Positions 2,869-63,984 are shown, numbered from the stretch's first letter. The stretch: DNA of 64,000 nucleotides from an uncultured bacterium (GCA_963804975.1 CAWDSG010000002.1:405015-469014), one strand, 5' to 3'. The notes: generated by a model not told the origin, from the sequence alone. A program made the numbers and translations.

Positions 2869-4755
2869 TTAAGAAATAATTACTTTATTAATAGTCGGAA
2901 CTACTGCCATATCGTTTTTCAAACTCTCAAGAAGAATATTGAGCGGAACAGTTGCAACACAGACATACTTGTCTCCTCCGCCATAATAAATGAATAATTT
3001 TTCATTTTTTACCACAGCTCCGCAAGCATATACTATTCCCGGTTTCCAATCGTTTTCATACCACATATCGGGAGTAAGGATCGGAATGGACAATCTGGCT
3101 ATAATTTTTGTCGGATCATTCAAATCCAGAAGTATTGCGCCGATTTTGTATCTGCCTATTTCCGCGTCGTGAGCATGATAAAGAACAAGCCAGCCGTCTT
3201 TTGTTTTTACCGGAGCTGGACCGATGCTTCTCATACGGATATGCCATGCTATCTGCTTATTTGGCATAGCTTGAGGATCAGGACTTTCAAAATCAACATT
3301 TTCGGTATTCAAAGAATCAATATTTTCAACATATTCAATTAGAACATGGTCCGCTTCATCGGCGTGAAGATTATGAAGAATCGCGTACTTGCCGTTTATT
3401 TTTTCCGGAAACAAAACCCAGTTTTTGTGCCTTCCGATCGGCGAAATAAATTTCATCTCGCTCCATTTCCACACTTTATTGAGAAAATCCTGAACGGATA
3501 TGGAAATCATTCCGACTCTGATATTATCCCAATTATCAAAAGCATTGAATGTTACATAAATCCTATCATCGATCCTGACCATCCGCTGATCTTCGCATCC
3601 GCCCCAGCTTCCGCCGGAAGGATACATCACAGGATCAAATCTTTTTTCCACCGGCCGCAAGCCGAATTTTGAATATTCCAAAGCAAATACGGGATTCGGA
3701 TATATTTCATCAATATGTATTCCGTCCTTTGTTTTTGCATAGCCGATTCTTGAGATGCCGTCTTTTCCCATCGCCCTGAAAAGCAGATGTATTGTTCCGT
3801 CAATATTAACCGCTGTCGGGTTAAGCGTAGCAGCAGAGCTCCACCAGGATTCCGGTTTTGGCCCGATAATCGGATTATTTTTGTTTTTTTTGATTTTATC
3901 GAACGGTTTTAAAATAGATGGCCGGCTGAAAGGTATAAGCATTGAGGAAGAAATGGTGCCTTCTTTTTGCGAATGCCAATATATGGAAACCGTATCGCCA
4001 AAAAACAAGACGCCGATACATTTAAGATCAGATTCATATTTGATTTTCTTTTCAAAAATAGGGAAATCCGACCTCCAGATGACTTTTTTCGGATCAAGCG
4101 GCGAAATCAGCGCAGCGCCAATCTGCAATTTAATATGCTGATCAGCTCTGACGGAAGCGTCATAAAAAACCAAAATTCCTTTTTCGCAAGGTTTTGATGC
4201 AACGAATTTCAAATTGCCATTGTCAAAAAATCCAGGCCTTGATTTCAATATCGGTTCTTTTGCTTTTCCCCATTTTTTCAAATCTCCCGAAAATGCCAGA
4301 TTAATTGACGATTCCCCGTAATATAAAGCGTATTTGCCGCCGGAAAGCTCGGAAACTATTCCTCCTCTTTCCTTTATAGAAAGGTTATCGCTTATAACAG
4401 ACCATTTATTTACACCTCTTGAAATCGCAATAATAAGTTTTTTTGTCTTACCGGTTTTATAAGTAAAAGCAATGAGTTCTTTTTTCCCTATTTTAGATGA
4501 AACAATACTGTCTATTTTTTCCAATTTTATATTTTTCCCTGTTCCGGAATCAATAGTTATATTCTTCCTGATTTTTGAAAAAACAATGGATGATTTCCCT
4601 TTATTTGAAATTAAGAATATTTTTTTCGGATTTTCTTCAGATCTGCAAAAAATGAAGGATTTTTTATCACTGTTCAAAAAACCTACGGGATAAATCTTTT
4701 CTTCTTTTATGGTTTTTTTAATCATTTTAAAATATAAAAAACACAAAAAATGCAC
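2869..4755 (-). CDS. GH130-family glycoside hydrolase/phosphorylase (paralog)
   Basis: NPIIGPKPESWWSSAATLNPTAVNIDGTIHLLFRAMGKDGISRIGYAKTKDG and GCEDQRMVRIDDRIYVTF motifs typical of GH130. Directly adjacent to the first GH130 gene. Confidence 0.75.
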   Translation of the reverse strand: MHFLCFLYFKMIKKTIKEEKIYPVGFLNSDKKSFIFCRSEENPKKIFLISNKGKSSIVFSKIRKNITIDSGTGKNIKLEKIDSIVSSKIGKKELIAFTYKTGKTKKLIIAISRGVNKWSVISDNLSIKERGGIVSELSGGKYALYYGESSINLAFSGDLKKWGKAKEPILKSRPGFFDNGNLKFVASKPCEKGILVFYDASVRADQHIKLQIGAALISPLDPKKVIWRSDFPIFEKKIKYESDLKCIGVLFFGDTVSIYWHSQKEGTISSSMLIPFSRPSILKPFDKIKKNKNNPIIGPKPESWWSSAATLNPTAVNIDGTIHLLFRAMGKDGISRIGYAKTKDGIHIDEIYPNPVFALEYSKFGLRPVEKRFDPVMYPSGGSWGGCEDQRMVRIDDRIYVTFNAFDNWDNIRVGMISISVQDFLNKVWKWSEMKFISPIGRHKNWVLFPEKINGKYAILHNLHADEADHVLIEYVENIDSLNTENVDFESPDPQAMPNKQIAWHIRMRSIGPAPVKTKDGWLVLYHAHDAEIGRYKIGAILLDLNDPTKIIARLSIPILTPDMWYENDWKPGIVYACGAVVKNEKLFIYYGGGDKYVCVATVPLNILLESLKNDMAVVPTINKVIIS

Positions 4756-4854
4756 TAAGAACTTTAAGCTGTCAATATTATATTATCTTTAAAAATATCT
4801 TGCAATATCAGCATTAATTGGTATTTTAGGATAAAAATATATATAATAAGCAGG

Positions 4855-5610
4855 ATGACAAAAAAAGTAATTGTTTTTGATTTGGATGGGACTCTTGCCG
4901 AAAGCAAACAAAATTTGGACAGTGAAATGTCTGCTCTTCTTTACGATCTTTTATACGTTAAAATGGTCGGAATAGTTTCCGGCGGAGGAATGGCACAATT
5001 TCAAAAGCAAGTTATAGACAAACTGCCGCGAGATAACGAAAGATTGAAAAATCTCATTATTTTCCCGACGAAAGGCGCAATGATGTACAAATTTGACGGA
5101 GAAAAATGGAATAAAGTGTATGAAGAAAAATTAAATCCGACGGACAAGAAAAAAATAATAAGCGCTGTTGAAAAAGCAAAAAAAGAAGTTGATTTCCTGC
5201 CGCAAAAAACTTATGGGGATGCTCTGGAAGACAGAGAAACCGAATTTACTTTTTCTGCTTTGGGGCAAGATGCGCCGCTTGAACTGAAGAGAAATTGGGA
5301 TAAGGACGTAGTAAAACGGCAAAAATTAAAAACATTGATTAAGGATTATTTGCCGGAATTTGAAGTGGAAATAGGAGGAAGCACTTCAATAGATATCACA
5401 AAAAAAGGCATAGATAAGGCCTTTGCAATCAGGCAGATTTGCAAATATGAAAATATTGCAATTGACGAGATATTATTCGTTGGAGACGCTTTATTTATCG
5501 GCGGAAACGACAGCTCAGTCAAGAAAACAGGCGTGGACACTATTGCAGTCAAAGATTATAATGAAACAAAAGAAATTATAAAAAATATAATTGAAGGAAA
5601 AATACAATGA
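4855..5610 (+). CDS. phosphomannomutase, eukaryotic-type (HAD-IIB, PMM family)
   Basis: FDLDGTL DxDxT motif, LYVKMVGIVSGGG, C-terminal FVGDALFIGGNDSSV. Matches PMM (PF03332-like) architecture. TATAAT-like box about 12 nt upstream. Confidence 0.7.
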   Translation: MTKKVIVFDLDGTLAESKQNLDSEMSALLYDLLYVKMVGIVSGGGMAQFQKQVIDKLPRDNERLKNLIIFPTKGAMMYKFDGEKWNKVYEEKLNPTDKKKIISAVEKAKKEVDFLPQKTYGDALEDRETEFTFSALGQDAPLELKRNWDKDVVKRQKLKTLIKDYLPEFEVEIGGSTSIDITKKGIDKAFAIRQICKYENIAIDEILFVGDALFIGGNDSSVKKTGVDTIAVKDYNETKEIIKNIIEGKIQ

Positions 5611-5954
5611 AAATCAAATTAGACATGCGGCCGTGGGGAAAAGAAGAATGGTTCATCGCAAAAGAACCGATACGAATGGTAAAAATTCTTACTTTCAAAC
5701 CGAATCAGGAGTGCAGCTTGCAATATCATTATCACAGAAAGGAATTTTGGAGAATTCTGGAAGGCAGTGCAATAGTAACGATCGGAAAGAAAAAAATCAG
5801 AGCGAAAGTCGGCGACAATTTTGAAATCAAGAAAAAACAGATACATAGGATGCAAGGACTTTCAAAAGGAGCTAAAATCCTGGAAATCCATTTCGGAAAA
5901 TTTGACGAAAACGATATCGTGCGGCTGGAAGACGATTACGGCAGAGTGAAATAA
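5607..5954 (+). CDS. cupin-type mannose-6-phosphate isomerase (type II PMI cupin domain)
   Basis: RPWGKEEWF...KILTFKPNQECSLQYHYHRKEFWRILEGSA...VGDNFEIKKKQIHRM is the classic PMI/GMP cupin signature. ATGA overlap with the phosphomannomutase stop. Confidence 0.65.
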   Translation: MKIKLDMRPWGKEEWFIAKEPIRMVKILTFKPNQECSLQYHYHRKEFWRILEGSAIVTIGKKKIRAKVGDNFEIKKKQIHRMQGLSKGAKILEIHFGKFDENDIVRLEDDYGRVK

Positions 5955-15768: not shown

Positions 15769-17160
15769 TTATACGGGAAGGTTTGCCGGGGCTTCCGATT
15801 TCTTTGAAGGAACTCTTTTGAGAGTAGGCGTCTGGGAAACAATTCCGCTCGGAAAATGGAATATGGTGGCAAGCTCTTCCGTGTTCATAATAAACGGTTT
15901 TTGGTGATAAAAATGCTTATACGGCCACTGGAAAAATGATCTAAGCTTATAAGCGTGGAAAATACCGCTTTTGTATTCAAGTATTTTGGCTTTGTTTGAT
16001 TTAAAAGAATCAAAAATATCAAAAGAAAAGTGATTTTCAAAAAATGGAAATATCCTTGTAAAATCTTTTCTTGTATCGCCAATATCGGTTAAAAAACTAA
16101 ACATTAAACCATTAAGATTCTTTGAATTATACTGTCGCAAACATCCGATTATGCCGCTTATGCGGACAGAATTAAATGCGTCTTTTTCCGCAATATACAT
16201 GCTTCGTATCATGCAATCAAAAGGCACCTTGCCCGCGCTTCTCTCAAGCGCCGCTATAACTTCCGTCTGGCCTTTTGTCGGATTCGGAAATTTAAAAATC
16301 TTTTCTTCATCTTCGCCTTCTTTCGGTTTTGGAACCGCAGCTTGCCTGACTTTTTCCACTTCAATTTCATGTTCCTCTTTGATATCCCTTGCTCTTCCAA
16401 ACAAAGAAATCCAGAATTTTTGAAAAATATTAGCTTTTTTAATATCTTTTACTTTTATAGCAAGAGTGCCGTGATGCCAAGCTTCTGGTTCATGCTTTTG
16501 CACCAATATCTGGATCCAAACATTTTCGCCTGCTTTTATTGAACCCAAAAATTCCAAAACCGATGTCAATGGATCTATTTTGTATTCTTCTTTTGCATCC
16601 TGATCAAGCCCGTAATCAATGTATGTCTTTATGGGATACGGATCAGGCTGGATGAATTTATACTGGACTCCGTACATAAAATATTTTTCCATATCAAAAT
16701 GCACAGAGGCCGTATAATCGTCTTTTTCGGAAACCTCGTAGATTTCAAGATTTGGATATTGGGCATAAAGCTGCGCCTCAATGACATTTTTATATTTTGC
16801 CTGGCTGCACCATATGAAAAATTTCACTTCCCCGCCGATGGAAACAAGCTCGCACGAAAACCACGGCCTTGTCTTGCCTTCAATGAACGCTTCTCCGTAA
16901 TTTGACGCTCCGGTTTGGGCAAGATGCGAAAAAAATATTTCCATTCCGGCCGGCGACTTCAGAATCTCTTTCGGCAATTTGATTTCAAGAAGGCAGGTCT
17001 TTTGGGCTTCAACAAATTTTAACGTAATCCATCTGTAGCGCAAAATCCAAAACGCGACAATAAGCATCAAAGGCAAAAATATCGGCAGCAAAATTATCAA
17101 CGATTTGATAACCACCGGGAAAAGCCCCTGATTAAATGATTTTATTAATATTTGGATCAC
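15769..17160 (-). CDS. hypothetical membrane-anchored protein (463 aa)
   Basis: ORF track. Two N-terminal TM helices. No recognisable motif. Confidence 0.45.
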   Translation of the reverse strand: MIQILIKSFNQGLFPVVIKSLIILLPIFLPLMLIVAFWILRYRWITLKFVEAQKTCLLEIKLPKEILKSPAGMEIFFSHLAQTGASNYGEAFIEGKTRPWFSCELVSIGGEVKFFIWCSQAKYKNVIEAQLYAQYPNLEIYEVSEKDDYTASVHFDMEKYFMYGVQYKFIQPDPYPIKTYIDYGLDQDAKEEYKIDPLTSVLEFLGSIKAGENVWIQILVQKHEPEAWHHGTLAIKVKDIKKANIFQKFWISLFGRARDIKEEHEIEVEKVRQAAVPKPKEGEDEEKIFKFPNPTKGQTEVIAALERSAGKVPFDCMIRSMYIAEKDAFNSVRISGIIGCLRQYNSKNLNGLMFSFLTDIGDTRKDFTRIFPFFENHFSFDIFDSFKSNKAKILEYKSGIFHAYKLRSFFQWPYKHFYHQKPFIMNTEELATIFHFPSGIVSQTPTLKRVPSKKSEAPANLPV

Positions 17161-18408: not shown

Positions 18409-21276
18409 TTATACAACAAAGTTGATTACTTTGTTTTTAACGAAGATTTTTTTAATAATTCTCTTGCCGGAGAGCCACTTGACAATATCTTGATTGTTTA
18501 AAGCTGATTTTTCCACTTTATCCTCCGAAGAATCTGCCGGTACGTCAAGAGTTGCCCGAACTTTGCCGTTTATCTGCACAACGATTTTCACATTTCCCGA
18601 TTTTAATTTGCTTTCATTATATTTCGGCCAGCTTTCCAAAGCAATCATTTTTTTACCACCAAAGTTTGCCCAAATCTCTTCACAGATATGCGGAGCAAAA
18701 GGAGAAAGAATTTTTATCAAGGATAAATATGATTCCTTGCTTATCTTGTCCTCTCCTTCAAAATTATTCGCCAAAATCATCATTGCAGAGACCGCAGTGT
18801 TTGCATTGAATGATGCGATATCGTCTCCGACTTTTTTTATCGTTTGATTCAATAATATTTTCGTTTCCTCGCTGTCGGTAAAATTTTCGGCAACTTTTTC
18901 CTGAAGCTTCCAGACCTTGTCCAAAAATCTTCTTGAGCCAACCATGCTATCGGTGCTCCAAGCAATCTCCTGTTCAAACGGTCCCATAAACGACTCATAA
19001 ACCCTGAGTGTGTCGGCGCCTACATTTTTTACCACCTCATCGGGATTGACCACATTTCCCCATCTTTTTGACATTTTCCTGTTATCCGAGCCGAGTATCA
19101 TTCCCTGATTTCTAAGCTGTTTAAAGGGCTCTTTTGTGCTTACTATGCCTATATCAAAGAGAAACTTGTGCCAAAAACGAACATAAATAAGATGTCTTGT
19201 GGCATGCTCCGTACCTCCGACATACATGTCCACCGGAGCCCAATATTTTTCTTTTTTCGGATCAACCAAGGCCTTATCGTTTTTTGGATCCATATAGCGT
19301 AAATAATACCAAGATGAGCCGGCCCATTGCGGCATCGTGTTTGTTTCTCTTTTACCGGCACCGCCGCATTTCGGACACTTCACGTTTACCCATTTTGTCA
19401 TGGCGGCAAGCGGCGACTCTCCGGTTCCTGTCGGTTCGTAAAATCTGACCTTTGGAAGCATAACAGGCAGATCTTTTTCCGGAACTGCAACTGTCCCGCA
19501 TTTTTCACAATGCACTATCGGGAATGGCTCGCCCCAATATCTCTGACGCGAAAAAACCCAATCCTGAAGTTTGTATGTGACTGTCATTTTTCCGCCGGCA
19601 AATTCTGTGATTTCTTTCATTATTTCCGTATTTTTCTTGCCGTCAAATTTTCCGGAATTGATCATTATTCCATTGCCGATAAATGCATGTGGTCCTTTTT
19701 CCAAATGAGCAATAATTTCAGGGAGTTCCGAAACAGGCCAAAAAATTTTATTTATTTCTGAAATCGGCACCCATACAACAGTGTGCTTCTCCGATTCTTC
19801 ATCTGAAAGTTCATTTTTTTCGAGATTCGCTAGTTCCACAACAAAAACTTGAGTAAATGCCTGGCGATTGACATTCTTATGTGCTGCATAAAAATGCGTT
19901 TCCATTTGCCAGCCAAGTTTCTCCACTTTTTTAAAATTTTTATAGCCGGTTTCTTCTTTCACTTCCCGTGCGATAGCATCTTCGCGCGATTCGTTTTCAT
20001 CAACGCCACCGATAACAAGTGTTTTCCATGGAACTTTTTTCCATTGGATTTGAATGATCTTATCTTCGGTAGGATGCTTCACAATTGCCTGCACATTGGC
20101 TCTCGGACTCCATTGTTTATCATTTTTGGGAAGATTATCTTTATCAATAAAAAACGGTGCAATAACCTGTTTTATCGGCAAATTATATTTCTTTGCAAAA
20201 GCAAAATCGCGGTCATCATGTGCCGGCACAGCCATTACTGCCCCCGTGCCATAATTCGCCAAAACATAATCCGCGATAAATACGGGAATTTCTTCCTTGT
20301 TTACTGGATTTACGGCTTTCACTCCGTCAAGTTTAACGCCGGTTTTTTCCTTGCCTTCCGCAGTCCTTTCTATTTCCGTCCTGTTTTTTATTTCCTTCCT
20401 GTATTTCTCAACTTCAGCCCAATTTTTTATCTGCGGCTTCAATTCATCAATCAAACTATTTTCCGGAGCAATAACGACATAAGAAAGGCCGAATAAAGTA
20501 TCAGGTCTTGTAGTGAATACTTTTATTTCTTTTCCTGCCTGCGCAGGCAGGTTTGAATCCTTAATTTTAAAAGTAATTTCCGCGCCTTCCGAACGGCCAA
20601 TCCAATTCCTCTGCAATTCCTTGATGTGTTCCGGCCAGGCAAGCTCATCCAAATCATTCAAAAGCCGATCGGCATAATCGCGGATTTTCAAAACCCATTG
20701 TTTCATCTGTTTTTTCTCTACCACAGTCCCGCACTGTTCGCATTTTCCGTTCTCTATATCTTCATTTGCCAATCCGGTCTTGCAGGAAGGGCACCAATTT
20801 ATCGGCGCAAATGACTCATAAGCCAGACCTTTTTTGAACATCTGCAAGAATATCCATTGCGTCCATTTGTAATATTTCGGATCTGTTGTGTTTATTTCCC
20901 TATCCCAATCATAATCCAGACCTATAATACTTAACTGTTCTTTGTATCTTTTGACATTTTTCTTTACTGCAATTTCAGGATTTATTTTATTTTTTAAGGC
21001 GTACTGTTCTGCCGGCAAGCCAAAAGCGTCCCAACCCATCGGATGAAGAACATTAAAACCATTCATTCTTTTGAATCTTGAATAAATATCAGTAGCGACA
21101 TAACCTCGCGGATGGCCGACATGAAGGCCTTCTCCCGACGGATACGGGAACATATCAAGCACGTAACATTTCGGCTTGTCGCTCTTCTCGGTGGTCTTGT
21201 AGATTTTTTCCGCAGCCCATTTCTTTTGCCATTTCTTCTCAATCTTTATGTGGTCGTATTTGCCGGTTTTATTCAT
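18409..21276 (-). CDS. leuS: leucyl-tRNA synthetase with inserted Nudix-like domain
   Basis: HVGH, editing domain, KMSKR, anticodon-binding domains. Likely start MNKTGKYDHIKIEKKWQKKW at 21276 (ORF track extends to 21342). About 160 extra residues between the AHDDRDF..IKQVI and GIMINSGKFDG blocks contain a perfect Nudix box. Confidence 0.93.
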   Translation of the reverse strand: MNKTGKYDHIKIEKKWQKKWAAEKIYKTTEKSDKPKCYVLDMFPYPSGEGLHVGHPRGYVATDIYSRFKRMNGFNVLHPMGWDAFGLPAEQYALKNKINPEIAVKKNVKRYKEQLSIIGLDYDWDREINTTDPKYYKWTQWIFLQMFKKGLAYESFAPINWCPSCKTGLANEDIENGKCEQCGTVVEKKQMKQWVLKIRDYADRLLNDLDELAWPEHIKELQRNWIGRSEGAEITFKIKDSNLPAQAGKEIKVFTTRPDTLFGLSYVVIAPENSLIDELKPQIKNWAEVEKYRKEIKNRTEIERTAEGKEKTGVKLDGVKAVNPVNKEEIPVFIADYVLANYGTGAVMAVPAHDDRDFAFAKKYNLPIKQVIAPFFIDKDNLPKNDKQWSPRANVQAIVKHPTEDKIIQIQWKKVPWKTLVIGGVDENESREDAIAREVKEETGYKNFKKVEKLGWQMETHFYAAHKNVNRQAFTQVFVVELANLEKNELSDEESEKHTVVWVPISEINKIFWPVSELPEIIAHLEKGPHAFIGNGIMINSGKFDGKKNTEIMKEITEFAGGKMTVTYKLQDWVFSRQRYWGEPFPIVHCEKCGTVAVPEKDLPVMLPKVRFYEPTGTGESPLAAMTKWVNVKCPKCGGAGKRETNTMPQWAGSSWYYLRYMDPKNDKALVDPKKEKYWAPVDMYVGGTEHATRHLIYVRFWHKFLFDIGIVSTKEPFKQLRNQGMILGSDNRKMSKRWGNVVNPDEVVKNVGADTLRVYESFMGPFEQEIAWSTDSMVGSRRFLDKVWKLQEKVAENFTDSEETKILLNQTIKKVGDDIASFNANTAVSAMMILANNFEGEDKISKESYLSLIKILSPFAPHICEEIWANFGGKKMIALESWPKYNESKLKSGNVKIVVQINGKVRATLDVPADSSEDKVEKSALNNQDIVKWLSGKRIIKKIFVKNKVINFVV
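19678..20160 (-). other. Nudix hydrolase-like domain inserted within LeuS (Nudix box GGVDENESREDAIAREVKEETGY at about 19942..20010)
   Basis: Matches Gx5Ex7REUxEExGU exactly. Flanking beta-strand-like segments ANVQAIVKHPTEDKIIQIQ and VVWVPISEINK. Confidence 0.65.
20534..20551 (-). repeat. GC-rich palindromic element copy (CCTGCCTGCGCAGGCAGG, perfect palindrome), in frame in leuS
   Basis: Encodes NLPAQAGKE in LeuS. Confidence 0.7.
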
Positions 21277-21408
21277 ATTAAAACATAATATAACAAAAAT
21301 AGTCGGAAATAAAGAGTTCTTTGGCTTGACATAATCCGTCATTTAATTAAGATAGGACCAGAACAGGCAAGTCCGTTCCTTTCCAAAAAAATCTGTCAGG
21401 AGAGAAAA

Positions 21409-24139: not shown

Positions 24140-24215
24140 TGGCCTTATCGTCTAACGGTTAGGACATAGCCTTCTCAAGCGTTAGAATCGGGGTTCGATT
24201 CCCCGTAAGGTCACC
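24140..24215 (+). tRNA. tRNA-Glu(CUC)-like; all arms canonical except a poorly paired anticodon stem (possible pseudo-tRNA or unusual tRNA)
   Basis: Acceptor GGCCTTA/TAAGGTC, D-arm GTCT..GGAC, loop TTCTCAA with U33 and anticodon CTC, T-arm CGGGGTTCGATTCCCCG, encoded CCA. Anticodon stem TAGCC/GCGTT pairs at only 2 of 5 positions. Confidence 0.5.
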
Positions 24216-24239
24216 ATTTCGTGCTAGCACGAGATATAT

Positions 24240-56072: not shown

Positions 56073-56154
56073 GCCAGAGTGATGAAATTGGCAAACATAC
56101 TCGACTCAAAATCGAGCGCCGAAAGGCTTGTGGGTTCAAGTCCCACCTCTGGCA
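56073..56154 (+). tRNA. tRNA-Leu(CAA), class II with long variable arm
   Basis: Acceptor GCCAGAG/CTCTGGC, anticodon stem CTCGA/TCGAG, loop CTCAAAA, variable hairpin GCCGAAAGGC, T-arm GTGGGTTCAAGTCCCAC, discriminator A. Confidence 0.8.
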
Positions 56155-56169
56155 CAAACAACACAAATT

Positions 56170-56448
56170 ATGAACTTAGAAAATATTAAAATAATTAAAT
56201 CTGATGATAGGGGTATTATTTATGATTGTGGCAAATCAAGTTTTATTGCAAGAAAAAAAGGTAGTATCAGTGCCAATCATATACATGAAGATGCTGAGAC
56301 TATTTATCTAGTTAAAGGAAAAATTGAGCTAACTATCGGCAAAGAAACTAAAATAGTTAAAGCTCCAATAAAATTTAGTTATACTTCGAATATCTACCAT
56401 AAATTAGTTGCTCTTACAGATATTGAACTTATCATAGATAGAGATTAG
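56170..56448 (+). CDS. small cupin-domain protein (92 aa)
   Basis: Start at MNLENIKIIKSDD (the ORF-track start overlaps the tRNA). Single cupin beta-barrel pattern. AT-rich. Confidence 0.4.
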   Translation: MNLENIKIIKSDDRGIIYDCGKSSFIARKKGSISANHIHEDAETIYLVKGKIELTIGKETKIVKAPIKFSYTSNIYHKLVALTDIELIIDRD

Positions 56449-56456
56449 TTAATTTT

Positions 56457-57353
56457 ATGAGATCAAAAGTTTTAGTTGTTCTTGGCCCTACTGCAACCGG
56501 TAAAAGCGATATTGCTATTCAAATCGCCAAAAAATGTAATGGTGAAATTATAAGTGCTGATTCACGGCAGGTTTATAAAAGAATGAACCTCGGTAGCGGT
56601 AAAATTACTAAAAAGGAAATGGTGGGTGTTCCTCACCATTTACTTGATGTAGTTAAACCAAGTACCAGATTTTCGGTTGCTCATTATAAAAAACTTGCCG
56701 AAAAAGCGATTGAAAAAATAATCTCGCACGGAAAATTACCAATTATCTGCGGAGGAACGGGTTTTTACATTGATAGCATTGCCAAAAATATATTGCTTCC
56801 GGAAGTTTCGCCAAATCAAAAATTAAGAAAAATTCTTGAGAAAAAATCCGCCGAAAAGCTTTTCAAAAAACTAAAAAAACTTTCTCCTTCCCGCGCCAAA
56901 TCCATTGACCGGCACAACAAAGTCCGCCTTATACGGGCAATTGAAATAGCAAAATCTCTCGGCAATATTCCGAAAATAAAAGAATTGCCGAGCAAATACG
57001 ATTTCATTTTTATCGGTCTTGATCTGCCTGATAAAGAATTGGAGAAAAGAATAGAAATTCGCCTGCTTGCGCGAATAAAAAAAGGAATGATAAAAGAAGT
57101 TGAAAATTTGCATAAGCAAGACGTGTCTCGGAGAAGATTGGAGTCATTCGGGCTTGAATACAGGCAAACTGCTTTATATTTACAAGGAAAAATTACTCTC
57201 AAACAAATGATTGAAAATATCAAAAATGAAAGCTGGCAATACGTGAAGCGTCAAAGGACTTGGTTTAAAAGGAATAAGCAAATTAAATGGTTTGAACCTA
57301 AAGAAATAAAGAAAATATTGAGTTTAATTAAAAATAAAATATTAAAATCCTAA
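56457..57353 (+). CDS. miaA: tRNA dimethylallyltransferase
   Basis: VLGPTATGKSDIAIQIA P-loop and SADSRQVYKRMNLGSGK motif. Confidence 0.9.
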   Translation: MRSKVLVVLGPTATGKSDIAIQIAKKCNGEIISADSRQVYKRMNLGSGKITKKEMVGVPHHLLDVVKPSTRFSVAHYKKLAEKAIEKIISHGKLPIICGGTGFYIDSIAKNILLPEVSPNQKLRKILEKKSAEKLFKKLKKLSPSRAKSIDRHNKVRLIRAIEIAKSLGNIPKIKELPSKYDFIFIGLDLPDKELEKRIEIRLLARIKKGMIKEVENLHKQDVSRRRLESFGLEYRQTALYLQGKITLKQMIENIKNESWQYVKRQRTWFKRNKQIKWFEPKEIKKILSLIKNKILKS

Positions 57354-57839
57354 AACTTTAATTTTATCCAGAGAACCTTTTTCTATATGTTTGAAACAGC
57401 CGGCAAGCTCCTTAAGCCACTTCTTTTTCTTCTCAACAATATCTTTAAAAGTGAATATAAAAATCTTATCAAAACCGTTGTAAGCGGATAAAACCTTTAC
57501 ATCGCCGTTCACATGACAAAGCACCGTGGCTATATCATCCACAGGAATAACAACTCTGGCGCTAATGCCCATATCGTCAAACATATCCTGAACAAGCTCC
57601 TGATTTTCTTCCAAAATATCCCTTGCCAGCTGTTTTTCTTTTAAAGTTTTTGTGACTCTTCCTAAAGGGCCGAATTTCACTTTCCACCCCTTTTTTCTGA
57701 AAGCTTTGTTTATTTTTTCTCCGCCGCCAATCAAAATCACCGTAAAATATTTTTTTGATATTTTTCTTATCTCTCCGATTGCTTTTTTATTCTTTAGCAA
57801 TGAACCGGAAATCTTGATTAGAGCGTTTTGTTTTATCAT
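57342..57839 (-). CDS. amino-acid kinase superfamily protein (UMP kinase-like, short)
   Basis: IKISGSLL and ILIGGGEKINKAF resemble the N-terminal motifs of the carbamate/UMP kinase fold. Only 165 aa. Confidence 0.35.
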   Translation of the reverse strand: MIKQNALIKISGSLLKNKKAIGEIRKISKKYFTVILIGGGEKINKAFRKKGWKVKFGPLGRVTKTLKEKQLARDILEENQELVQDMFDDMGISARVVIPVDDIATVLCHVNGDVKVLSAYNGFDKIFIFTFKDIVEKKKKWLKELAGCFKHIEKGSLDKIKVLGF

Positions 57840-57842
57840 ATG

Positions 57843-57913
57843 CGGGAGATGGAGGAATCGGACCTCCGACAGCGGTTTTGGAGACCGCAGTTATACCACT
57901 TAACTAATCTCCC
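57843..57913 (-). tRNA. tRNA-Trp(CCA)
   Basis: Minus strand GGGAGAT..GTTA-AGTGGTA-TAAC..GCGGT-CTCCAAA-ACCGC..GGAGGTCCGATTCCTCC..ATCTCCC-G. Confidence 0.85.
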
Positions 57914-57933
57914 CTATACAAACACTATACCAA

Positions 57934-58013
57934 AAAGGGCGGCATGGCGCAAAAATTTTCTTCGAGAACTGTTTGAGCGAAGCGAGTTTTTGAGAAGATA
58001 ATTTTTATGCCAT
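57934..58013. repeat. hairpin-embedded conserved-core element, copy 6 (20-bp IR AGGGCGGCATGGCGCAAAAATT around core CGAGAACTGTTTGAGCGAAGCGAGTTTTTGAG)
   Basis: Between rpmG and tRNA-Trp. Confidence 0.8.
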
Positions 58014-58031
58014 GCCGCCCTTACCCCGTTT

Positions 58032-58190
58032 TTATTTCTTGGCTTCTTTGTGCACTGTCTGTTTTCTGCACCATTTGCAAAATTTCTTAAGCTCTATTTT
58101 GCGCTCAACTTTCTTTTTATTTTTTCTCGTCCAATAATTGATCCTTCTACAATCCTTGCAGGCAAGTTTTATCAGTTGTGGCTGTGGCAT
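58032..58190 (-). CDS. rpmG: 50S ribosomal protein L33
   Basis: MPQPQLIKLACKDCRRINYWTRKNKKKVERKIELKKFCKWCRKQTVHKE: L33 zinc-ribbon pattern. The ORF-track ORF is longer; the true start is the internal Met. Confidence 0.75.
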   Translation of the reverse strand: MPQPQLIKLACKDCRRINYWTRKNKKKVERKIELKKFCKWCRKQTVHKEAKK

Positions 58191-58252
58191 ATATATTAAA
58201 TTAAGTTTTGAGAGTATATCGCAAACCGCCGGAAAATGCAATTGCAGGCGTA

Positions 58253-59932
58253 TTATTTGAGATCCGTAGTACTTGTATCCGGCACAATCGGCCTGACTTT
58301 CCAAAACTTCTCATGGAGCGTATGGACTGTTTCTTCAAATTCGCGGCTCTTCAAAAGCTTGAGGACAATTATAAGTGCGGCTATGCCTAGAATTCCGGCG
58401 CAAAAACCCTGCATAAAAATGCCTCCGGTTTTGTTCAGATTAAAAATATTATTGAACAGATTCAAGCCGAGATATGCCACAAAACCCATGATTACAGAAG
58501 CGGAAAAGGACTGGAAAAGTGTTTTAATAAGCGGAATCGAAAAACCTGAATGTTCCTTTTCAAACCATTTCCAGAGGATAATGCAATTGATGATCTGGGC
58601 GAGAGAAAACCCAAGCGCAAGCATCAGCACTTCGGTTCCGGCAATATCATCAACACGGAAAAGATGTTCTATAAAAAATCTGAAGAAATAAATATTATAA
58701 AATATTTTTATGAATGCGTAAGAAAGCCCGATTGACAAGATTCCTGTAATCAAGCTCGCATACAAAGATTTTTTCGTATTTCCCTTGGCGTAATATCCTC
58801 TGATAAAAATAAGCACCAGCGATTGAGCCATAACGGAAAAAGCGAATATGGCGAGAGATGCGGCGGTAAGCTTGGTGCCGTTCCAGCCAAATTTTCCCGC
58901 TCCGTATATCACTCTTACGATCTGGGCGCGAAGCACAATAAAGATGACGCTGATCGGTATGGACCAAAAAATGGTATGGCGAAGCGCAGCGGAAATATGC
59001 GAGAGAAATTCTTCTTTCAGATTTTTGGTGATGAATCGCGACAATGTGGGAAATGCGGCAAGCGAATAACTCATGCCGATTATTGAGAGCGGAACCCCTT
59101 GAAGATTGCTTGAAAAATTAAAAACCGAAATCGAACCGACAGTCATTAAAGACGCCATGCCGACAAGAGCAAGCATTGTAATCTGAGTCATGGCAAGCGT
59201 AATTGTACGCGGTATTGATGTGAGGAAAACATTTTTTATGATCGGCCAGTCAAAATGAAACGGCCACGCCCTGAAAAATCCGCTTTTGAAGACAAACGGA
59301 AGCTGAATGGAAAGATGCATAATCGTGCCGAGAATAACGCCGTAAGCAAGGCCATAAATGCCAAAAAACGGATAAAAAAACAATGCGCCTATTATAATGC
59401 CGACATTGTAGACAAGAGGACAAAGAGCGTAAACAAGAAATCTTTTTCCGACCTGTGTAATGCTTGCAAGAAAATTCGAGGTTCCCAGAAAAATCGGCGA
59501 TAAAAGCAGGATTCTGGCCATACGTATAAGGGCCGTCTTATCGGCAATTCCCGGAAAAATGTGCGGGGCGAGAAACGGTATTAAAAAGAATGTAATGATG
59601 CTTGCGCCGACAATAAGCAGCGAAAAAAACGAGAAAATCGTATTGATGAAAGATTTCGTCTCTTCGGTTGATTTTTCAAGCCGATTTGTAATGAAAGGCA
59701 CAAGAACCGAAATGGAAACGATTGAGCCGACCGTGGCAAAAATAAAATCCGGAATTTCAAAAGAAGAATAATAAATATCCAGCGTATGGCCGATGCCAAA
59801 AGAAGATGCCAGAACTCTATCCCTCAAAAGCGCAAGCACTTGTGATAAAATAGCGAAAAGGCCTAGAAGATACGCCGCTTCATGAAGGCCTTCTATTTTT
59901 TTATAGAAAATATTGAAAAAATTTTTAACCAT
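58253..59932 (-). CDS. murJ: lipid II flippase MurJ (MviN)
   Basis: 559 aa polytopic protein with MurJ-like N-terminus (AAYLLGLFAILSQVLALLRDRVLASSFG). Confidence 0.8.
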   Translation of the reverse strand: MVKNFFNIFYKKIEGLHEAAYLLGLFAILSQVLALLRDRVLASSFGIGHTLDIYYSSFEIPDFIFATVGSIVSISVLVPFITNRLEKSTEETKSFINTIFSFFSLLIVGASIITFFLIPFLAPHIFPGIADKTALIRMARILLLSPIFLGTSNFLASITQVGKRFLVYALCPLVYNVGIIIGALFFYPFFGIYGLAYGVILGTIMHLSIQLPFVFKSGFFRAWPFHFDWPIIKNVFLTSIPRTITLAMTQITMLALVGMASLMTVGSISVFNFSSNLQGVPLSIIGMSYSLAAFPTLSRFITKNLKEEFLSHISAALRHTIFWSIPISVIFIVLRAQIVRVIYGAGKFGWNGTKLTAASLAIFAFSVMAQSLVLIFIRGYYAKGNTKKSLYASLITGILSIGLSYAFIKIFYNIYFFRFFIEHLFRVDDIAGTEVLMLALGFSLAQIINCIILWKWFEKEHSGFSIPLIKTLFQSFSASVIMGFVAYLGLNLFNNIFNLNKTGGIFMQGFCAGILGIAALIIVLKLLKSREFEETVHTLHEKFWKVRPIVPDTSTTDLK

Positions 59933-60011: not shown

Positions 60012-60416
60012 CCATAAACCTTTCTACCTGTAAGCCGAATTCTGTTGATCATATTGCTATGATCAGATAGCCATCTGTCTGGGCCAACGATTGCTCACTG
60101 GCTCAAGCGGCGCTTCCGCACTGAAACGGACACGGCCTTGCATTCAAGTAAGGATTTTGCCGTTGCACTCTTTTAGTCGCCTAAAAGATTTATCCTGTCT
60201 TGCGGCAGGATAGATTTTTTCTTTCGAAAAAATCCGTCACTGTTCTCACCTCTCATATCGCTATGGACGGGCGTTACCCGCTACCTTTCCCAGCACTTTT
60301 ATACTACCAATGATGAATATTTTAATACCGATATAATTCGTAGTATAAAGGTGCTGGGTGAATGTTCGGACTTTCCTCCCCGATTAAAAACCGGAGTAAC
60401 TATCCGATAAAAAGGA
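60010..60416 (-). ncRNA. rnpB: RNase P RNA (bacterial type A)
   Basis: Minus strand contains GGAGGAAAGUCCGAACA (P4 5'), GGGUAACGCCCG, AGUGCAACGG, UGAGCCAGUGAGCAAUCGUUGGCCCAGACAGAUGGCUAUC, ACAGAAUUCGGCUUA (P4 3'). TTGATT-N17-TATAAT promoter at about 60452..60424. Confidence 0.85.
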
Positions 60417-60458
60417 TACTTGTATTATATAACAATATATAAATTAAATCAAGTAAAT

Positions 60459-60490
60459 AAAAATCCGCGCTTTTTAAGCGCGGATTTTTA
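60459..60490. terminator. hairpin AAATCCGCGC-TTTTTA-AGCGCGGATTT terminating the pilin-like operon
   Basis: Seen directly. Confidence 0.6.
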
Positions 60491-60507
60491 TTTACAAAAT
60501 TTTTCGG

Positions 60508-60810
60508 TTAAATGGTGGCAAGAATGATATTGATGATTCCAATTGCCGAAACCATAATGAATATGCCGATTACTCCCCATATCATATGCTGATAACCCTC
60601 TTTTCTTTTGTCGGGAACATCGGCATTCTGAATGAAAACCATCACGCCCCAGACAAAATAAACAACTGCAAGAGCAAATAAAAGATAAATAACCGGCTTG
60701 ACGATCTGATCCAACACATTCTGATATAACTTACTGAAGGTAATATTGGTATTAGTGCCGCTCGGAACAATAATGGCGGCATATGTTTTTTGGATTATAA
60801 AATCCAGCAT
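60508..60810 (-). CDS. TrbC/VirB2-like small 2-TM protein (paralog 5 of 5)
   Basis: C-terminal MIWGVIGIFIMVSAIGIINIILATI shared with the paralogs. Confidence 0.45.
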   Translation of the reverse strand: MLDFIIQKTYAAIIVPSGTNTNITFSKLYQNVLDQIVKPVIYLLFALAVVYFVWGVMVFIQNADVPDKRKEGYQHMIWGVIGIFIMVSAIGIINIILATI

Positions 60811-60816
60811 ATTGTT

Positions 60817-61173
60817 TTATATGGTTGGAATCTGGCTGCCGATATTTTCCTGTACGCCCGATGTGCCGAATGTCGCCTGAAGTATCGCCACAAGTCCCCA
60901 AACTGACACCATTATGAATATGCCGATAATTCCCCAGAGCATGCCTGATTTTGCCGCTTTTTTCTTTTCTTCATTTCCGGACATAACGTAAAGAATAACG
61001 TTCCAAATAAACCAGACTACCGCCAAACCTATAAGCAAAGGCACCAATCTGTTCAGTATCACACCGGCAAAACTAAACAATCCCATAATACCCTGATTTG
61101 GAGCATATCCTTGAGCGAGTGCCACAAGAGGAGAAACTCCAACCGAAGCGCTTGCTAATATTCTTTTCATCAT
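60817..61173 (-). CDS. TrbC/VirB2-like pilin paralog (4 of 5)
   Basis: Signal peptide plus two hydrophobic helices; LWGIIGIFIMVSVWGLVAILQATFG. Confidence 0.5.
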   Translation of the reverse strand: MMKRILASASVGVSPLVALAQGYAPNQGIMGLFSFAGVILNRLVPLLIGLAVVWFIWNVILYVMSGNEEKKKAAKSGMLWGIIGIFIMVSVWGLVAILQATFGTSGVQENIGSQIPTI

Positions 61174-61283
61174 AAATAAATTACTTTTAATGAATAAACT
61201 TCGCGACCTTAATTATAATATAAACATTATAAATCTTACAAAAGCAACAATCAAGTGGATAATTACGCCTAAAGATCCGTCAT

Positions 61284-61838
61284 TTATCTTGGCATATTGA
61301 TGCTGCTGGTATTCAATCTAAACGTAGATTGAAGAATATTTACGATTCCCATAACCGAAAAAATGACAAATAGGCCTATAATCCCCCATAAAATAAACTG
61401 TTTTCCCGTATCTTTGTCTTCTTTGCCGCTTGCGCGTATGATTTTGAATATTCCCCAAAGGAAAAAAACAAGAGCAAGGCCGATAATAATGCGAACCACC
61501 AGATAATAGAAGCATCCTACCACAAGGTTCATGATTAAGCTCTTAAAATCCGTTACCGCTCCGGGGTTGCAGCTGAAAGAATTTGTTGTTGCGGAGCCGT
61601 TTACAGCTGAACTAGCTCCGCCGCAAAAAGCCGGGTCGTTTCCGACATAAACATGATTGACGCAGCTTGGATCGTGGCCGTTCGGAAAAACCGCCAGATT
61701 CGGCTCGCAATAACAGCCGGTAGCCGCATAAGAAATACGAGCTCCGGCAAAAAAAGAAACGGAAACACTAAAAGCAACGAGTAGAGATAAAATAAAAACT
61801 GAAATTATTTTTTTATTTTCGATATTTGATCTTTGCAT
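61284..61838 (-). CDS. TrbC/VirB2-like pilin paralog with Cys-rich N-terminal extension (3 of 5)
   Basis: ILWGIIGLFVIFSVMGIVNILQSTF, compared with the NVMSTFFG C-terminus of TrbC as recalled. Eight Cys in the extracellular part. Confidence 0.5.
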   Translation of the reverse strand: MQRSNIENKKIISVFILSLLVAFSVSVSFFAGARISYAATGCYCEPNLAVFPNGHDPSCVNHVYVGNDPAFCGGASSAVNGSATTNSFSCNPGAVTDFKSLIMNLVVGCFYYLVVRIIIGLALVFFLWGIFKIIRASGKEDKDTGKQFILWGIIGLFVIFSVMGIVNILQSTFRLNTSSINMPR

Positions 61839-61846
61839 TTTGATTT

Positions 61847-62215
61847 TTACGATTGCAGATTCTTTATCGTGCTGATAATGATCGTTGCGATTATTTTTGC
61901 GCCAAGCAGGATGGCAACGCCAATGCAGGTATTGAAAAAAATATCTTTCGCTTTTTTAAGCCCTTCAGGATTTCCCCGCGCCGCCACAAACTTATATCCG
62001 GAATAAATAAAAGCAACAATCGCGACGACACTTCCCACTTCCAAAACATAACCCAGAATTGTATTCACGAGAGTCGGAACATCGGTAATGTTTTTTAAAG
62101 GATTCTGTATTACTCCGGCCTGCGCAGCGTAAGAAACCGAGGGAATAAAAATTGCCGAAGCGGAAACCAAAAACATAAAAATTGTTATTCTTATTTTTTT
62201 ACAATATTTTTTCAT
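61847..62215 (-). CDS. TrbC/VirB2-like pilin paralog (2 of 5)
   Basis: PTLVNTILGYVLEVGSVVAIVAFIYSGYKFVAARGNPEG resembles the TrbC core. Confidence 0.5.
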   Translation of the reverse strand: MKKYCKKIRITIFMFLVSASAIFIPSVSYAAQAGVIQNPLKNITDVPTLVNTILGYVLEVGSVVAIVAFIYSGYKFVAARGNPEGLKKAKDIFFNTCIGVAILLGAKIIATIIISTIKNLQS

Positions 62216-62235
62216 TTTTTTAATTTAATTGATAA

Positions 62236-62619
62236 TTAACTTCCTAAAAATCTCAATGCTCCCGTGCTTGAATTTACAAGCGCCGCGATAACCGTATGGA
62301 TAATAAGCCAAGCGCATAGCACGATAAGTATGCCGATAATGGTTTTCTTGAACATCCCGAGAGCTTCTTCTATTTTGACTGTATTGCCGGGATTGAAAAG
62401 CATTTCTCCGCCTGCAATCGCAAAAGTAATGGCTGCCACTGAAACAGATATTCCTAAAAACCAATTGATGATGTTATTTACAAGAGTCGCCAGAGAACTG
62501 AAATCGCAATCGGGACCGTTGCACGGAACAAGCCCGGCTGCAAGAGCGGCCATCGGAACACCAATGAATGCAAAAAATAAAAACGGAAGGATTTTATAAT
62601 AAAGATTGTTATTCTTCAT
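62236..62619 (-). CDS. TrbC/VirB2-like pilin paralog (1 of 5)
   Basis: Long signal peptide, then ATLVNNIINWFLGISVSVAAITFAIAGGEMLFNPGN, compared with VirB2 ATMVNNICTFILGPFGQSLAVLGIVAIG as recalled. Confidence 0.55.
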   Translation of the reverse strand: MKNNNLYYKILPFLFFAFIGVPMAALAAGLVPCNGPDCDFSSLATLVNNIINWFLGISVSVAAITFAIAGGEMLFNPGNTVKIEEALGMFKKTIIGILIVLCAWLIIHTVIAALVNSSTGALRFLGS

Positions 62620-62682
62620 AAAATATTTTTAAACCGATGTTCTCTTTATTTTCTCATATTTCAAGGACATTCTCAACATTAT

Positions 62683-63984
62683 TCACTGGAACAGATTATT
62701 CAATTCGGTATCGGCTTTTTGCACTGAATCGTCAACGCTGAGATTGCCTGTGGTTATATCCCTGATCATTCCTTTAAATATGCTGTTTGTGCCGTCAATA
62801 CTCGGGTCAACCCATCCTTTGGCAATAAGCGCTGAATTATAAAATACGGTTTTTTGCGGATCAGGCGTGCCGGCAGCGATCAGGTCTATCCTTGCCGGCG
62901 CCGCATCATAAACCTGCAAAAATTCGGAAACGCCGTCGGAATCGGCCAAAACGGAAATCAAGTTATACGCGGCAAGATTATTCGGCGAACTTTTCAAAAA
63001 AGCAAAGCCGTACAATTCTCCGAACGTCGTTTTGGCGGTTGCATTCAGCGTTTGCGGCATCATTGTCACGTCAAAATTGAGATTTGGATTTTTATCGGCG
63101 ATATCGGCCGCTTCCGAAGCAAAACCGAAATAAGTGGCGAGATTTCCGGAAAGGAAAAAGTTTTTTGACAGCGGAAGAGAGCTGTTCCACGAATAAACTG
63201 ATTTTTTCGGATTTGAATAATCGGTGAAGAATTGCACGGCCGAAACCGCCGGTATCATTGAGCTGTTTGCCAATTTTTGGTACAAGTTTGATATGAAAGA
63301 ACCGGTTGAACTATCATATGAAACTATCGGGCTTCCCGCCTGCATGATAAGCGCGCTCAAAAACGCTTTTGCGTTATTGATATTGTCGTACTCACCGAAA
63401 GATGCGATACTTTGATTGATATTTCCGTTCTGATCTATTTTGGTAAGCTTTTCTGCAAGCAGTGGAAATTCGGACCAGGCCGCCGGCGGATTTGCTATCA
63501 GCGCATTTGCAAAAATATCTTTGTTCCAGTACATAACCATCGGGTCAACAAAAAATGGGATAGCGAACATTCCGCTTGGCTGAATATAAATTTCCGCCTC
63601 TTGGATATAAGTGTCCAAAAATGTCCTTTGCGGAATTGAAGTGATAAAGGCAACCTTATCCAAATATCGGTCCATTAGCTCCTGCGGTATGAGTATGACA
63701 TCCGGCCCTTTGCCTGTGGCAATCGCTTCCACAAGATCGCTATCTATTGTAGAAATATTTTTTTCTACATAAGTAAGCTTGAATTGCAGATTCTTGTCCT
63801 GCTCGTATTTTGAAATAAAATTATCAAAAGTGGTTTTGGCCACCGTGCCCCAGATGGAAACATTCACCTGGCTGTTCGCGGAATTATTTGACCTGAACAA
63901 GGAAAACGAAAGGAGCCCGACAACGATAAAAAAACCGAATACCGACAAAAGAACCATTTTGAATTTATTGCTGCCTTTTTCCAT
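62683..63984 (-). CDS. ABC transporter extracellular solute-binding protein (family 1, sugar-binding-like), TM-anchored
   Basis: VSIWGTVAKTTFDNFISKYEQD...ATGKGPDVILIPQELMDRY: SBP_bac_1 pattern. N-terminal TM anchor. Confidence 0.7.
   Translation of the reverse strand: MEKGSNKFKMVLLSVFGFFIVVGLLSFSLFRSNNSANSQVNVSIWGTVAKTTFDNFISKYEQDKNLQFKLTYVEKNISTIDSDLVEAIATGKGPDVILIPQELMDRYLDKVAFITSIPQRTFLDTYIQEAEIYIQPSGMFAIPFFVDPMVMYWNKDIFANALIANPPAAWSEFPLLAEKLTKIDQNGNINQSIASFGEYDNINNAKAFLSALIMQAGSPIVSYDSSTGSFISNLYQKLANSSMIPAVSAVQFFTDYSNPKKSVYSWNSSLPLSKNFFLSGNLATYFGFASEAADIADKNPNLNFDVTMMPQTLNATAKTTFGELYGFAFLKSSPNNLAAYNLISVLADSDGVSEFLQVYDAAPARIDLIAAGTPDPQKTVFYNSALIAKGWVDPSIDGTNSIFKGMIRDITTGNLSVDDSVQKADTELNNLFQ

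Follow-up and report, generated by a model that had tools for sequence, protein, structure and literature searches.

The DNA analysed here is a 64-kb stretch from an uncultured bacterium (GCA_963804975.1, CAWDSG010000002.1:405015-469014; hereafter the window), and the subject of this work is a run of six co-directional genes on its minus strand, at positions 60508-63984. The first gene (62683-63984) encodes a 433-aa membrane-anchored, family-1 carbohydrate-type solute-binding protein (SBP), and it is followed by five small genes from the pilin family of type IV secretion systems (T4SS), named P1 to P5 in this order. The names on homologs are Candidatus Paceibacterota, Patescibacteria group and Minisyncoccia. 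An earlier note on this DNA, made from the sequence alone, had described five consecutive minus-strand open reading frames (ORFs) for TrbC/VirB2-like pilins of 100-184 aa, and its coordinates proved exact: P1 (127 aa) lies at 62236-62619, P2 (122 aa) at 61847-62215, P3 (184 aa) at 61284-61838, P4 (118 aa) at 60817-61173 and P5 (100 aa) at 60508-60810. The successive spacers from the SBP gene to P5 measure 63 nt (62620-62682), 20, 8, 110 (61174-61283) and 6 nt. The run ends, as that note had also indicated, at a terminator-like hairpin (60453-60495, listed on the minus strand and reading the same on both) beside the RNase P RNA gene rnpB. The hairpin has a GC-rich core stem, CCGCGCTT/AAGCGCGG, with A and T runs at its flanks and 20 pairs in total.

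Family assignment and architecture of the five proteins

The five whole proteins were compared with the Pfam hidden Markov models (HMMs), a check that the earlier note had proposed for PF04956. All of them scored above the gathering cut-off of PF18895 (T4SS_pilin, 26.6 bits), with 40.6 bits for P1, 32.8 for P2, 32.8 for P3 (residues 110-169), 36.6 for P4 and 45.1 for P5, the highest of the five. The TrbC/VirB2 model PF04956 (cut-off 27.9 bits) was passed by P2 alone (39.0 bits, E 9.6e-10); P5 stayed below it with 18.4 bits, and P1, P3 and P4 had no match at E≤1. The same precomputed Pfam labels were found on independent gene calls of an identical 6,070-bp Logan contig and of three relatives. 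Since all five proteins pass PF18895 and P2 also passes PF04956, the lack of an HMM match that the earlier note had named as grounds against its reading was not what was found, and on this profile evidence the assignment to the T4SS pilin family is right. In NCBIfam, the best match of P2-P5 was NF045849, the pilin-like family of a Mycoplasma integrative and conjugative element (ICE; Mbov_0395), on which all five proteins scored 9.4-33.9 bits, under the 40-bit cut-off (P5 33.9 and P4 31.2 bits being the top sub-threshold scores).

The hydropathy profile of each of the five proteins has two strongly hydrophobic helices with a short charged loop between them, in agreement with the two helices per protein of the earlier note, and an AlphaFold model of P4 built with 57 sequences gave a helical hairpin (residues 29-64 and 68-103) with a predicted local distance difference test (pLDDT) score above 90. 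A long signal peptide had been ascribed to all five. P1-P4 do carry signal peptides with AxA-type cleavage sites, of 20-38 aa and so not uniformly long, ending at ALA/AG in P1, SYA/AQ in P2, SYA/AT in P3 and, after a short peptide, ALA/QG in P4. P5 has none; it starts with an 11-residue leader, MLDFIIQKTYA, which is kept as MxDFxxQKxYA in close orthologs and is absent from distant ones, and it stops directly past helix 2. P4 is further marked by a basic loop, SGNEEKKKAAKSG, and by a conserved C-terminal tail ending in QIPTI. Its 216 homologs at E≤1e-3 come from Candidatus Paceibacterota, and nearly all are labelled PF18895, some being named 'pilin' by NCBI.

P1 has a CNGPDC motif and a conserved C-terminal tail, GALRFLGS. 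The likeness of this protein to VirB2 had been drawn in the earlier note from a VirB2 motif, which proved accurate: the mature VirB2 sequence used here matched PDB entries 8cue and 8exh across its whole length. Residues 44-56 of P1, ATLVNNIINWFLG, agree with VirB2 ATMVNNICTFILG at 8 of 13 positions, and the segment stands directly N-terminal of helix 1 in both proteins, with a pairwise E-value of just 0.007.

In P3, a presumed extracellular extension of about 60 aa precedes the pilin hairpin. It had been credited with eight cysteines; P3 has six in all (positions 42, 44, 59, 72, 90 and 109), five of them in the extension, the sixth, C109, standing at the start of the first hairpin helix. Of the six, C90 and C109 alone are found again in orthologs. 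Between orthologs the extension is of hypervariable length, P3-type proteins of related loci ranging from 95 to 366 aa, and it can be aligned, Cys-rich stretch included, with the closest relative only (locus L002).

Gene order, age of the array and linkage to the SBP gene

Related loci were collected through the SBP. The scan of species-representative genomes gave 14 loci with SBP identities from 74% down to 35%, the closest being chromosome OY970290.1 (74%). When metagenomes were scanned with 13 aligned SBP orthologs, at least 568 relatives came up, and 80 loci were retained from them. The comparison with related genomes, likewise suggested by the earlier note, showed the same paralogs in the same order, 1-2-3/4-4-5, and in nearly every relative the best match of each window paralog occupied the corresponding place in the array. 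Taken over all loci, the order read 12345 in 18 loci, 12445 in 11, 124445 in six and 123445 in four, so that the arrays nearly always begin with types 1 and 2 and finish with types 4 and 5, and extra copies are found solely in the middle.

Identity between orthologs was calculated against four close relatives with an SBP at least 57% identical to that of the window (L002, L004, L006 and L008) and against the distant locus L010, the SBP identities over these five loci being 38-74%. In the close relatives, orthologs of P1, P2, P4 and P5 are 47-75% identical and those of P3 37-57%; P1 alone gives 47-63% with the first-position genes of these relatives and about 20% with that of L010, where the values for the array as a whole are 20-41%. 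Paralogs inside the window, in comparison, share 24-35% (mean about 29%). With ortholog proteins 37-75% identical, synonymous sites are saturated. Because positional orthologs occur throughout the clade and orthologs are more alike than paralogs, the duplications predate the clade and each copy has been maintained.

The earlier note had raised possible antigenic diversification, and one explanation of the locus is that the array arose by tandem duplication and diversification, its products being alternative pilus subunits for antigenic or host-range variation. The low identity of the paralogs, similar to that of published arrays (PMC12102498), agrees with this idea, and so does the variation seen among relatives, which is concentrated in how many P3/P4-type genes stand in the middle (arrays of 5 to 8 genes) and in the N-terminal extensions of P2-, P3- and P4-type genes (from none to about 370 aa). 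Against it, every paralog has positional orthologs across the clade that are, in close relatives, more alike than the paralogs are; the two positions at each end of the array are fixed; and P4 and P5, 75% and 71% identical to their L002 orthologs, are as conserved as the SBP (74%). Neither sign of a recently amplified array was found, namely paralogs closer to each other than to the genes of relatives and a lack of positional orthology. We therefore consider this explanation quite unlikely; the pattern fits a set of differentiated subunits and not a recent diversification for antigenic variation.

The SBP gene heads this array almost without exception. The protein matches PF01547 with 68.2 bits (cut-off 26) and PF13416 with 58.4 bits, and its N-terminus is hydrophobic and lacks a lipobox cysteine, in keeping with the transmembrane-anchored family-1 SBP that the earlier note had placed ahead of the pilins. 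In the species-representative genomes, pilin ORFs, usually five, stand directly behind the SBP gene in 13 of 13 untruncated loci. Among the metagenome loci with at least 2.5 kb of downstream sequence the array follows the SBP gene directly in 39 of 39, with five genes in 20 loci, six in 11, seven in six, eight in one and three in one, counts that may take in a few overlapping ORFs; where 450-2,500 bp were available, at least the first pilin gene was seen in 24 of 26. The spacer between SBP and first pilin gene is mostly 2-60 nt in relatives. Three look-ups that were begun from pilin homologs instead of the SBP returned the same order, that is, methyltransferase, SBP and four to six pilins. The SBP-plus-pilins module is thus nearly invariant in a Paceibacterota clade.

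Upstream of the module, relatives carry genes for ribosomal protein S1, a metallo-beta-lactamase-fold protein, a small membrane protein, GyrA and an S-adenosylmethionine (SAM) methyltransferase, and other neighbours on that side encode Pth, signal peptidase I and HisRS. Since this gene set is conserved, the module sits in a conserved housekeeping block. The pairing of SBP and pilins is kept in locus L087, where the methyltransferase is absent, and it is kept although the genes that flank the array downstream are not the same, MurJ in close relatives giving way to others in distant ones. The SBP gene has also been duplicated together with pilins: L072 (6173-10770) has two SBP paralogs, 45% identical, with one pilin between them, and in L043 (162-4198) pilins flank the SBP on both sides. 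The L087 locus, the variable downstream flank and the joint duplications suggest that the pairing is more than inherited order.

The function of the SBP was approached through its solved relatives. A profile of the 13 SBP orthologs, whose alignment has 48 invariant columns, matched 488 SBP sequences in the PDB, the closest solved relative being 4r9f, 'MBP1' (E 3.9e-23, residues 16-395). A single-sequence AlphaFold model of the SBP had a pLDDT of 39 and was not used. The 4r9f/4r9g protein, CpMnBP1, is described as the part of an ABC transporter that binds manno-oligosaccharides (PMC4792470); the profile match is nearly full-length and of the CUT1 carbohydrate-binder type. The known protein belongs to an ABC transporter, whereas no ABC permease or ATPase gene adjoins the SBP gene in related loci and no ABC-transporter family was found among the window ORFs scanned. 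A small mannose cluster lies at 949-5954 of the window, with two genes of the GH130 beta-1,4-mannooligosaccharide phosphorylase family, a phosphomannomutase (PMM)-like hydrolase of the haloacid dehalogenase (HAD) type and a mannose-6-phosphate isomerase cupin. As the nearest solved relative of the SBP binds manno-oligosaccharides, the SBP may be linked to this cluster across 57 kb.

These data bear on a second explanation, in which SBP and pilins are one unit for capturing host sugars or glycans, the SBP being an adhesin or sensor that works with a pilus, or the receiving end of an uptake conduit. The nearly invariant adjacency with very short spacers, its survival of methyltransferase loss and of an altered downstream flank, the joint duplications, the lack of an adjoining permease or ATPase gene, the manno-oligosaccharide-binding relative and the GH130 mannoside phosphorylases of the window would all agree with it, and uptake from the host has been put forward in reviews as a speculative role of the T4SS pilus (PMC12857230, PMC11665869). 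The opposite side counts as well. The adjacency forms part of a wider GyrA-methyltransferase-SBP block and may be partly inherited synteny; L034 (3720-6119), the one clear exception, shows EF-Ts and no pilin gene behind its SBP; SBP genes are commonly orphans; and an SBP is not reported for the published Saccharibacteria arrays. A single sugar-capturing unit is in our view unlikely.

Further evidence on whether the pilins act together came from predicted fusion proteins. The full pilin profile search returned 37,934 representatives of 50%-identity clusters at E≤1e-3, and among them are predicted proteins with several VirB2-like hairpins in tandem in one chain: 17 in P0281 (1,775 aa), six in P0261 (555 aa) and three in P0241 (336 aa), the last with a signal peptide on the first unit only. 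The predicted topology of these poly-pilins is self-consistent, with two helices per unit, although a read-through artefact in the gene models is not fully excluded. The predicted fusions support the idea that the subunits act together.

Transcription signals, secretion machinery and a proposed mechanism

The 110-nt spacer between P3 and P4 stands out in the array. In five relatives it measures 97-133 nt, other junctions being mostly shorter than 30 nt, and it holds a near-consensus promoter-like site (TTGATT-17-TATAAT) followed, just downstream of the -10 box, by the motif GGTCGC. The -35 and -10 boxes and GGTCGC align in close relatives, and the motif is found in the equivalent spacers of L002, L004, L006, L008, L010 and L013; it could be a regulatory or 5'-UTR element. 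The 63-nt spacer between SBP and P1 has a weak promoter-like site, TTGAGA-17-GAAAAT with TG. Because this junction is usually 2-60 nt in relatives, co-transcription of SBP and P1 is likely. Given the long P3-P4 spacer with its conserved promoter-like site, two transcription units are proposed: SBP-P1-P2-P3, from an upstream promoter or the weak one before P1, and P4-P5, from the strong internal promoter, both ending at the hairpin. In Patescibacteria from enrichment cultures with methanogenic archaea, the genes of unknown function with the highest expression included those for T4SS pilins (PMC10936435).

The downstream neighbour outside the module, rnpB (60015-60415, minus strand), has a promoter-like site of its own at 60452-60424 (TTGATT-17-TATAAT), and the MurJ gene is next after it. 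The rnpB RNA aligns full-length with RF00010 (model positions 1-367, 95.8 bits, E 7.4e-30); peripheral helices are shortened or missing and there is a 78-nt insertion. Its score is just under the Rfam gathering score of 100, and a default Rfam scan misses it.

The reading that we favour follows from the analogy with VirB2. P1-P4 would be made with Sec-type signal peptides, and all five proteins would insert into the cell membrane as helix-loop-helix hairpins with both termini outside and the short charged loop inside. These hairpins would form a membrane pool, and a VirB4-type ATPase whose gene lies elsewhere in the genome would pull them out of it and polymerise them into a structure with its lumen lined by the loops. 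As the five genes are old, individually conserved and fixed in order, their products most likely act together as differentiated subunits and not as interchangeable variants. P4 and P5, preceded by a near-consensus promoter-like site of their own, could be the abundant, bulk subunits. P1-P3, probably co-transcribed with the membrane-anchored sugar-type SBP, would be accessory or tip subunits, P3 showing a variable cysteine-containing head outside, and the SBP would act at the same surface as the pilins. With its steps taken jointly, we hold this to be the best explanation as a whole and give it somewhat better than even confidence.

A number of results weigh against it. No T4SS motor or channel gene (VirB4, VirB6 or other T4SS families) was found among the scanned ORFs of the window, as the earlier note had said of VirB4 and VirB6; the ORFs of at least 70 aa from a crude non-overlapping gene call were scanned against Pfam, except for the partial ORF at 1-297, and the last four (56128-58304) were assigned by reading. 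In 14 related genomes no gene for VirB4, VirB6, VirB3 or VirB8 was present within 10 kb upstream, and in about 95 related loci no VirB4-like ATPase or recurrent large Walker-A protein was present within 8-10 kb. With no motor gene nearby, the link to type IV secretion rests here on family membership and on the literature. Neither phmmer nor profile searches of the PDB with P1, P2 and an alignment gave a significant match to any solved pilin; hhalign against VirB2 gave a probability of 1.6%; and fold searches returned generic helical hairpins only, which is uninformative for so simple a fold. Finally, no T4SS pilus has been seen so far in any Patescibacterium, and a 2025 review speaks of an 'intriguing possibility' that these monoderms form pili (PMC12857230).

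Two candidates for the missing machinery were discarded. A conserved 816-aa protein encoded upstream of the SBP in relatives, considered as a possible VirB4, is GyrA according to Pfam. A 463-aa membrane protein (15769-17160, minus strand), considered as a T4SS part, is without a Walker A motif, and its homologs carry just PF26449 (DUF8128). The gene for this protein, which has no match in the local Pfam copy and more than 4,100 homologs, mostly labelled Paceibacterota, stands between YceG/MltG and a sigma-factor-like gene.

If the lack of nearby T4SS genes and of matches to solved pilins is taken at face value, the five could be generic small two-helix membrane proteins with a misleading Pfam label and no connection to type IV secretion, and the automatic annotations of homologs are indeed inconsistent ('succinate dehydrogenase anchor subunit', 'PnuC'). 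P2, however, passes the curated TrbC/VirB2 model, on which P5 still reaches 18 bits, and P1 has the VirB2 motif at the equivalent position. Moreover, pilin genes of this type adjoin virB4 in 1,135 Patescibacteria assemblies (PMC12102498), and those of Southlakia epibionticum lie inside an essential T4SS cluster (PMC10633639). This makes a wrong family label very improbable.

Another question is whether the hairpins leave the membrane. They could remain there and, with no extended pilus, make up a ring or channel part, hetero-oligomeric in composition, of a monoderm-type T4SS or another envelope complex. The Patescibacterial VirB4 clade nests within the MPF-FATA class of monoderms, which have no pili (PMC12102498), and the pilus is, as stated above, unobserved in the phylum. 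A fusion of up to 17 hairpins in a chain is more readily imagined as an assembly that crosses the membrane many times than as subunits of a pilus, and the NF045849 family, on which all five proteins score below the cut-off, comes from wall-less bacteria. The sequence groups P1-P5 with the pilus-forming TrbC/VirB2 proteins, and the presumed extracellular extensions and conserved C-terminal tails suggest surface display; both observations leave a membrane ring standing, and we rate it as unlikely.

The remainder of the window is housekeeping in content: dcw/mre cell-wall genes, aminoacyl-tRNA synthetases, topoisomerase I, RelA/SpoT and ParB, together with phosphoketolase, acetate kinase and the mannose cluster. 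The leucyl-tRNA synthetase (18409-21342, minus strand, 977 aa) has an inserted NUDIX domain (PF00293, residues 437-532, 48.9 bits). At 24141-24216 of the plus strand there is a tRNA-like gene (Rfam tRNA, 45 bits) for which ARAGORN names no tRNA and gives a four-base anticodon, 'ctca', in an enlarged loop, and whose minimum-energy fold is no clean cloverleaf. TGA is the stop codon in 6 of 61 genes, the SBP gene included, and so there is no sign of recoding.

Comparison with known systems and meaning for Patescibacteria

Pilin arrays of several genes have already been published for Patescibacteria, and the kind of array described here is therefore known. Southlakia epibionticum ML1 has a six-pilin array, which is essential and lies within a T4SS gene cluster (Wang et al. 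2023, PMC10633639). In a survey of 3,035 Patescibacteria assemblies, VirB4 was present in 2,417, and VirB2-like pilins were present in 1,948 of the VirB4-positive ones, near virB4 in 1,135; 441 arrays had 2-11 pilin genes each, with a mean identity of 25% (Quinonero-Coronel et al. 2025, PMC12102498). The array of the window resembles these in its families (PF18895/PF04956), in its phylum, in its divergent tandem paralogs (about 29% here against 25%) and in its five genes, within the range of 2-11. The pilus for host or episymbiont contact suggested by the earlier note matches the published view of such arrays (PMC10633639, PMC12102498, PMC12857230), uptake from the host being a further speculation of the 2025 review (PMC12857230). 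Unlike the Southlakia array inside its T4SS cluster, that of the window follows an SBP gene among syntenic housekeeping genes, and the distance to any T4SS gene is at least 60 kb on one side and no less than 10 kb, in relatives, on the other. The SBP link, the paralogs' positional orthology, the separation from the motor in this clade and the conserved internal promoter were not found in PMC10633639, PMC12102498 or PMC12857230. What this locus adds is thus a near-invariant SBP head gene, positional orthology, housekeeping synteny without a motor nearby and a conserved promoter-like site before P4-P5.

The classical relatives are VirB2 of Agrobacterium and TrbC of RP4 (PF04956; PDB 8cue, 8exh). 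The signal peptide, the two-helix hairpin and the short charged loop are shared with them, P2 passes their family model and P1 has xATxVNNIxxFxLG before helix 1. VirB2 and TrbC are encoded by one pilin gene per system, in the virB or trb operon, and are cyclised and assembled with phospholipid across a diderm envelope, whereas the present bacterium is presumed to be a monoderm, its five genes are differentiated, no machinery is encoded nearby and the whole sequences show no significant similarity. The trwL paralogs of the Bartonella Trw system and the virB2 paralogs of Anaplasma are likewise several tandem VirB2-family genes in a host-dependent bacterium; those copies are read as lineage-specific amplification for variant surfaces, whereas the present ones are ancient, ordered and individually conserved. 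The Mycoplasma NF045849 protein, too, is VirB2-like, a small hairpin that belongs to a conjugative T4SS in bacteria lacking an outer membrane. In contrast to P1-P5, which are below the membership cut-off of that family, it is single-copy and lies on a mobile element.

Solute-binding-fold proteins tied to a secretion or adhesion organelle include ChvE of Agrobacterium, which signals through VirA, enterococcal PrgZ, a peptide (family 5) binder that feeds Opp, and FimA of Streptococcus parasanguinis. For none of the three is the gene known to head a pilin operon. In the one species tested the Patescibacterial T4SS is essential, yet the system is without relaxase and coupling proteins and has pilins of a kind not normally present in monoderms.

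A more far-reaching idea joins these threads. The VirB2-like proteins and the orphan membrane-anchored SBP of this Paceibacterota clade could form one conserved apparatus apart from the T4SS cluster, in which a five-subunit hetero-filament or channel contacts the host and the SBP captures host glycans or oligosaccharides. We regard this as doubtful, quite improbable as it stands. If true, it would give direct genomic support to the speculated uptake role of the Patescibacterial T4SS pilus, and the poly-pilin fusions would mean that the subunits assemble in a defined order and ratio.

The locus leaves the overall picture of the Patescibacterial T4SS unchanged. Within that picture, the conserved, ordered set of paralogs argues for a hetero-oligomeric structure over antigenic variants, and the internal promoter, being conserved, points to the two paralogs that would supply the abundant subunits. 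A subfamily of these arrays consistently has a sugar-type binding protein at its head and lies apart from the motor genes, which provides candidates for interaction and localisation studies. If the link between SBP and pilins is functional, it would bear on how ultra-small epibionts acquire nutrients from their hosts.

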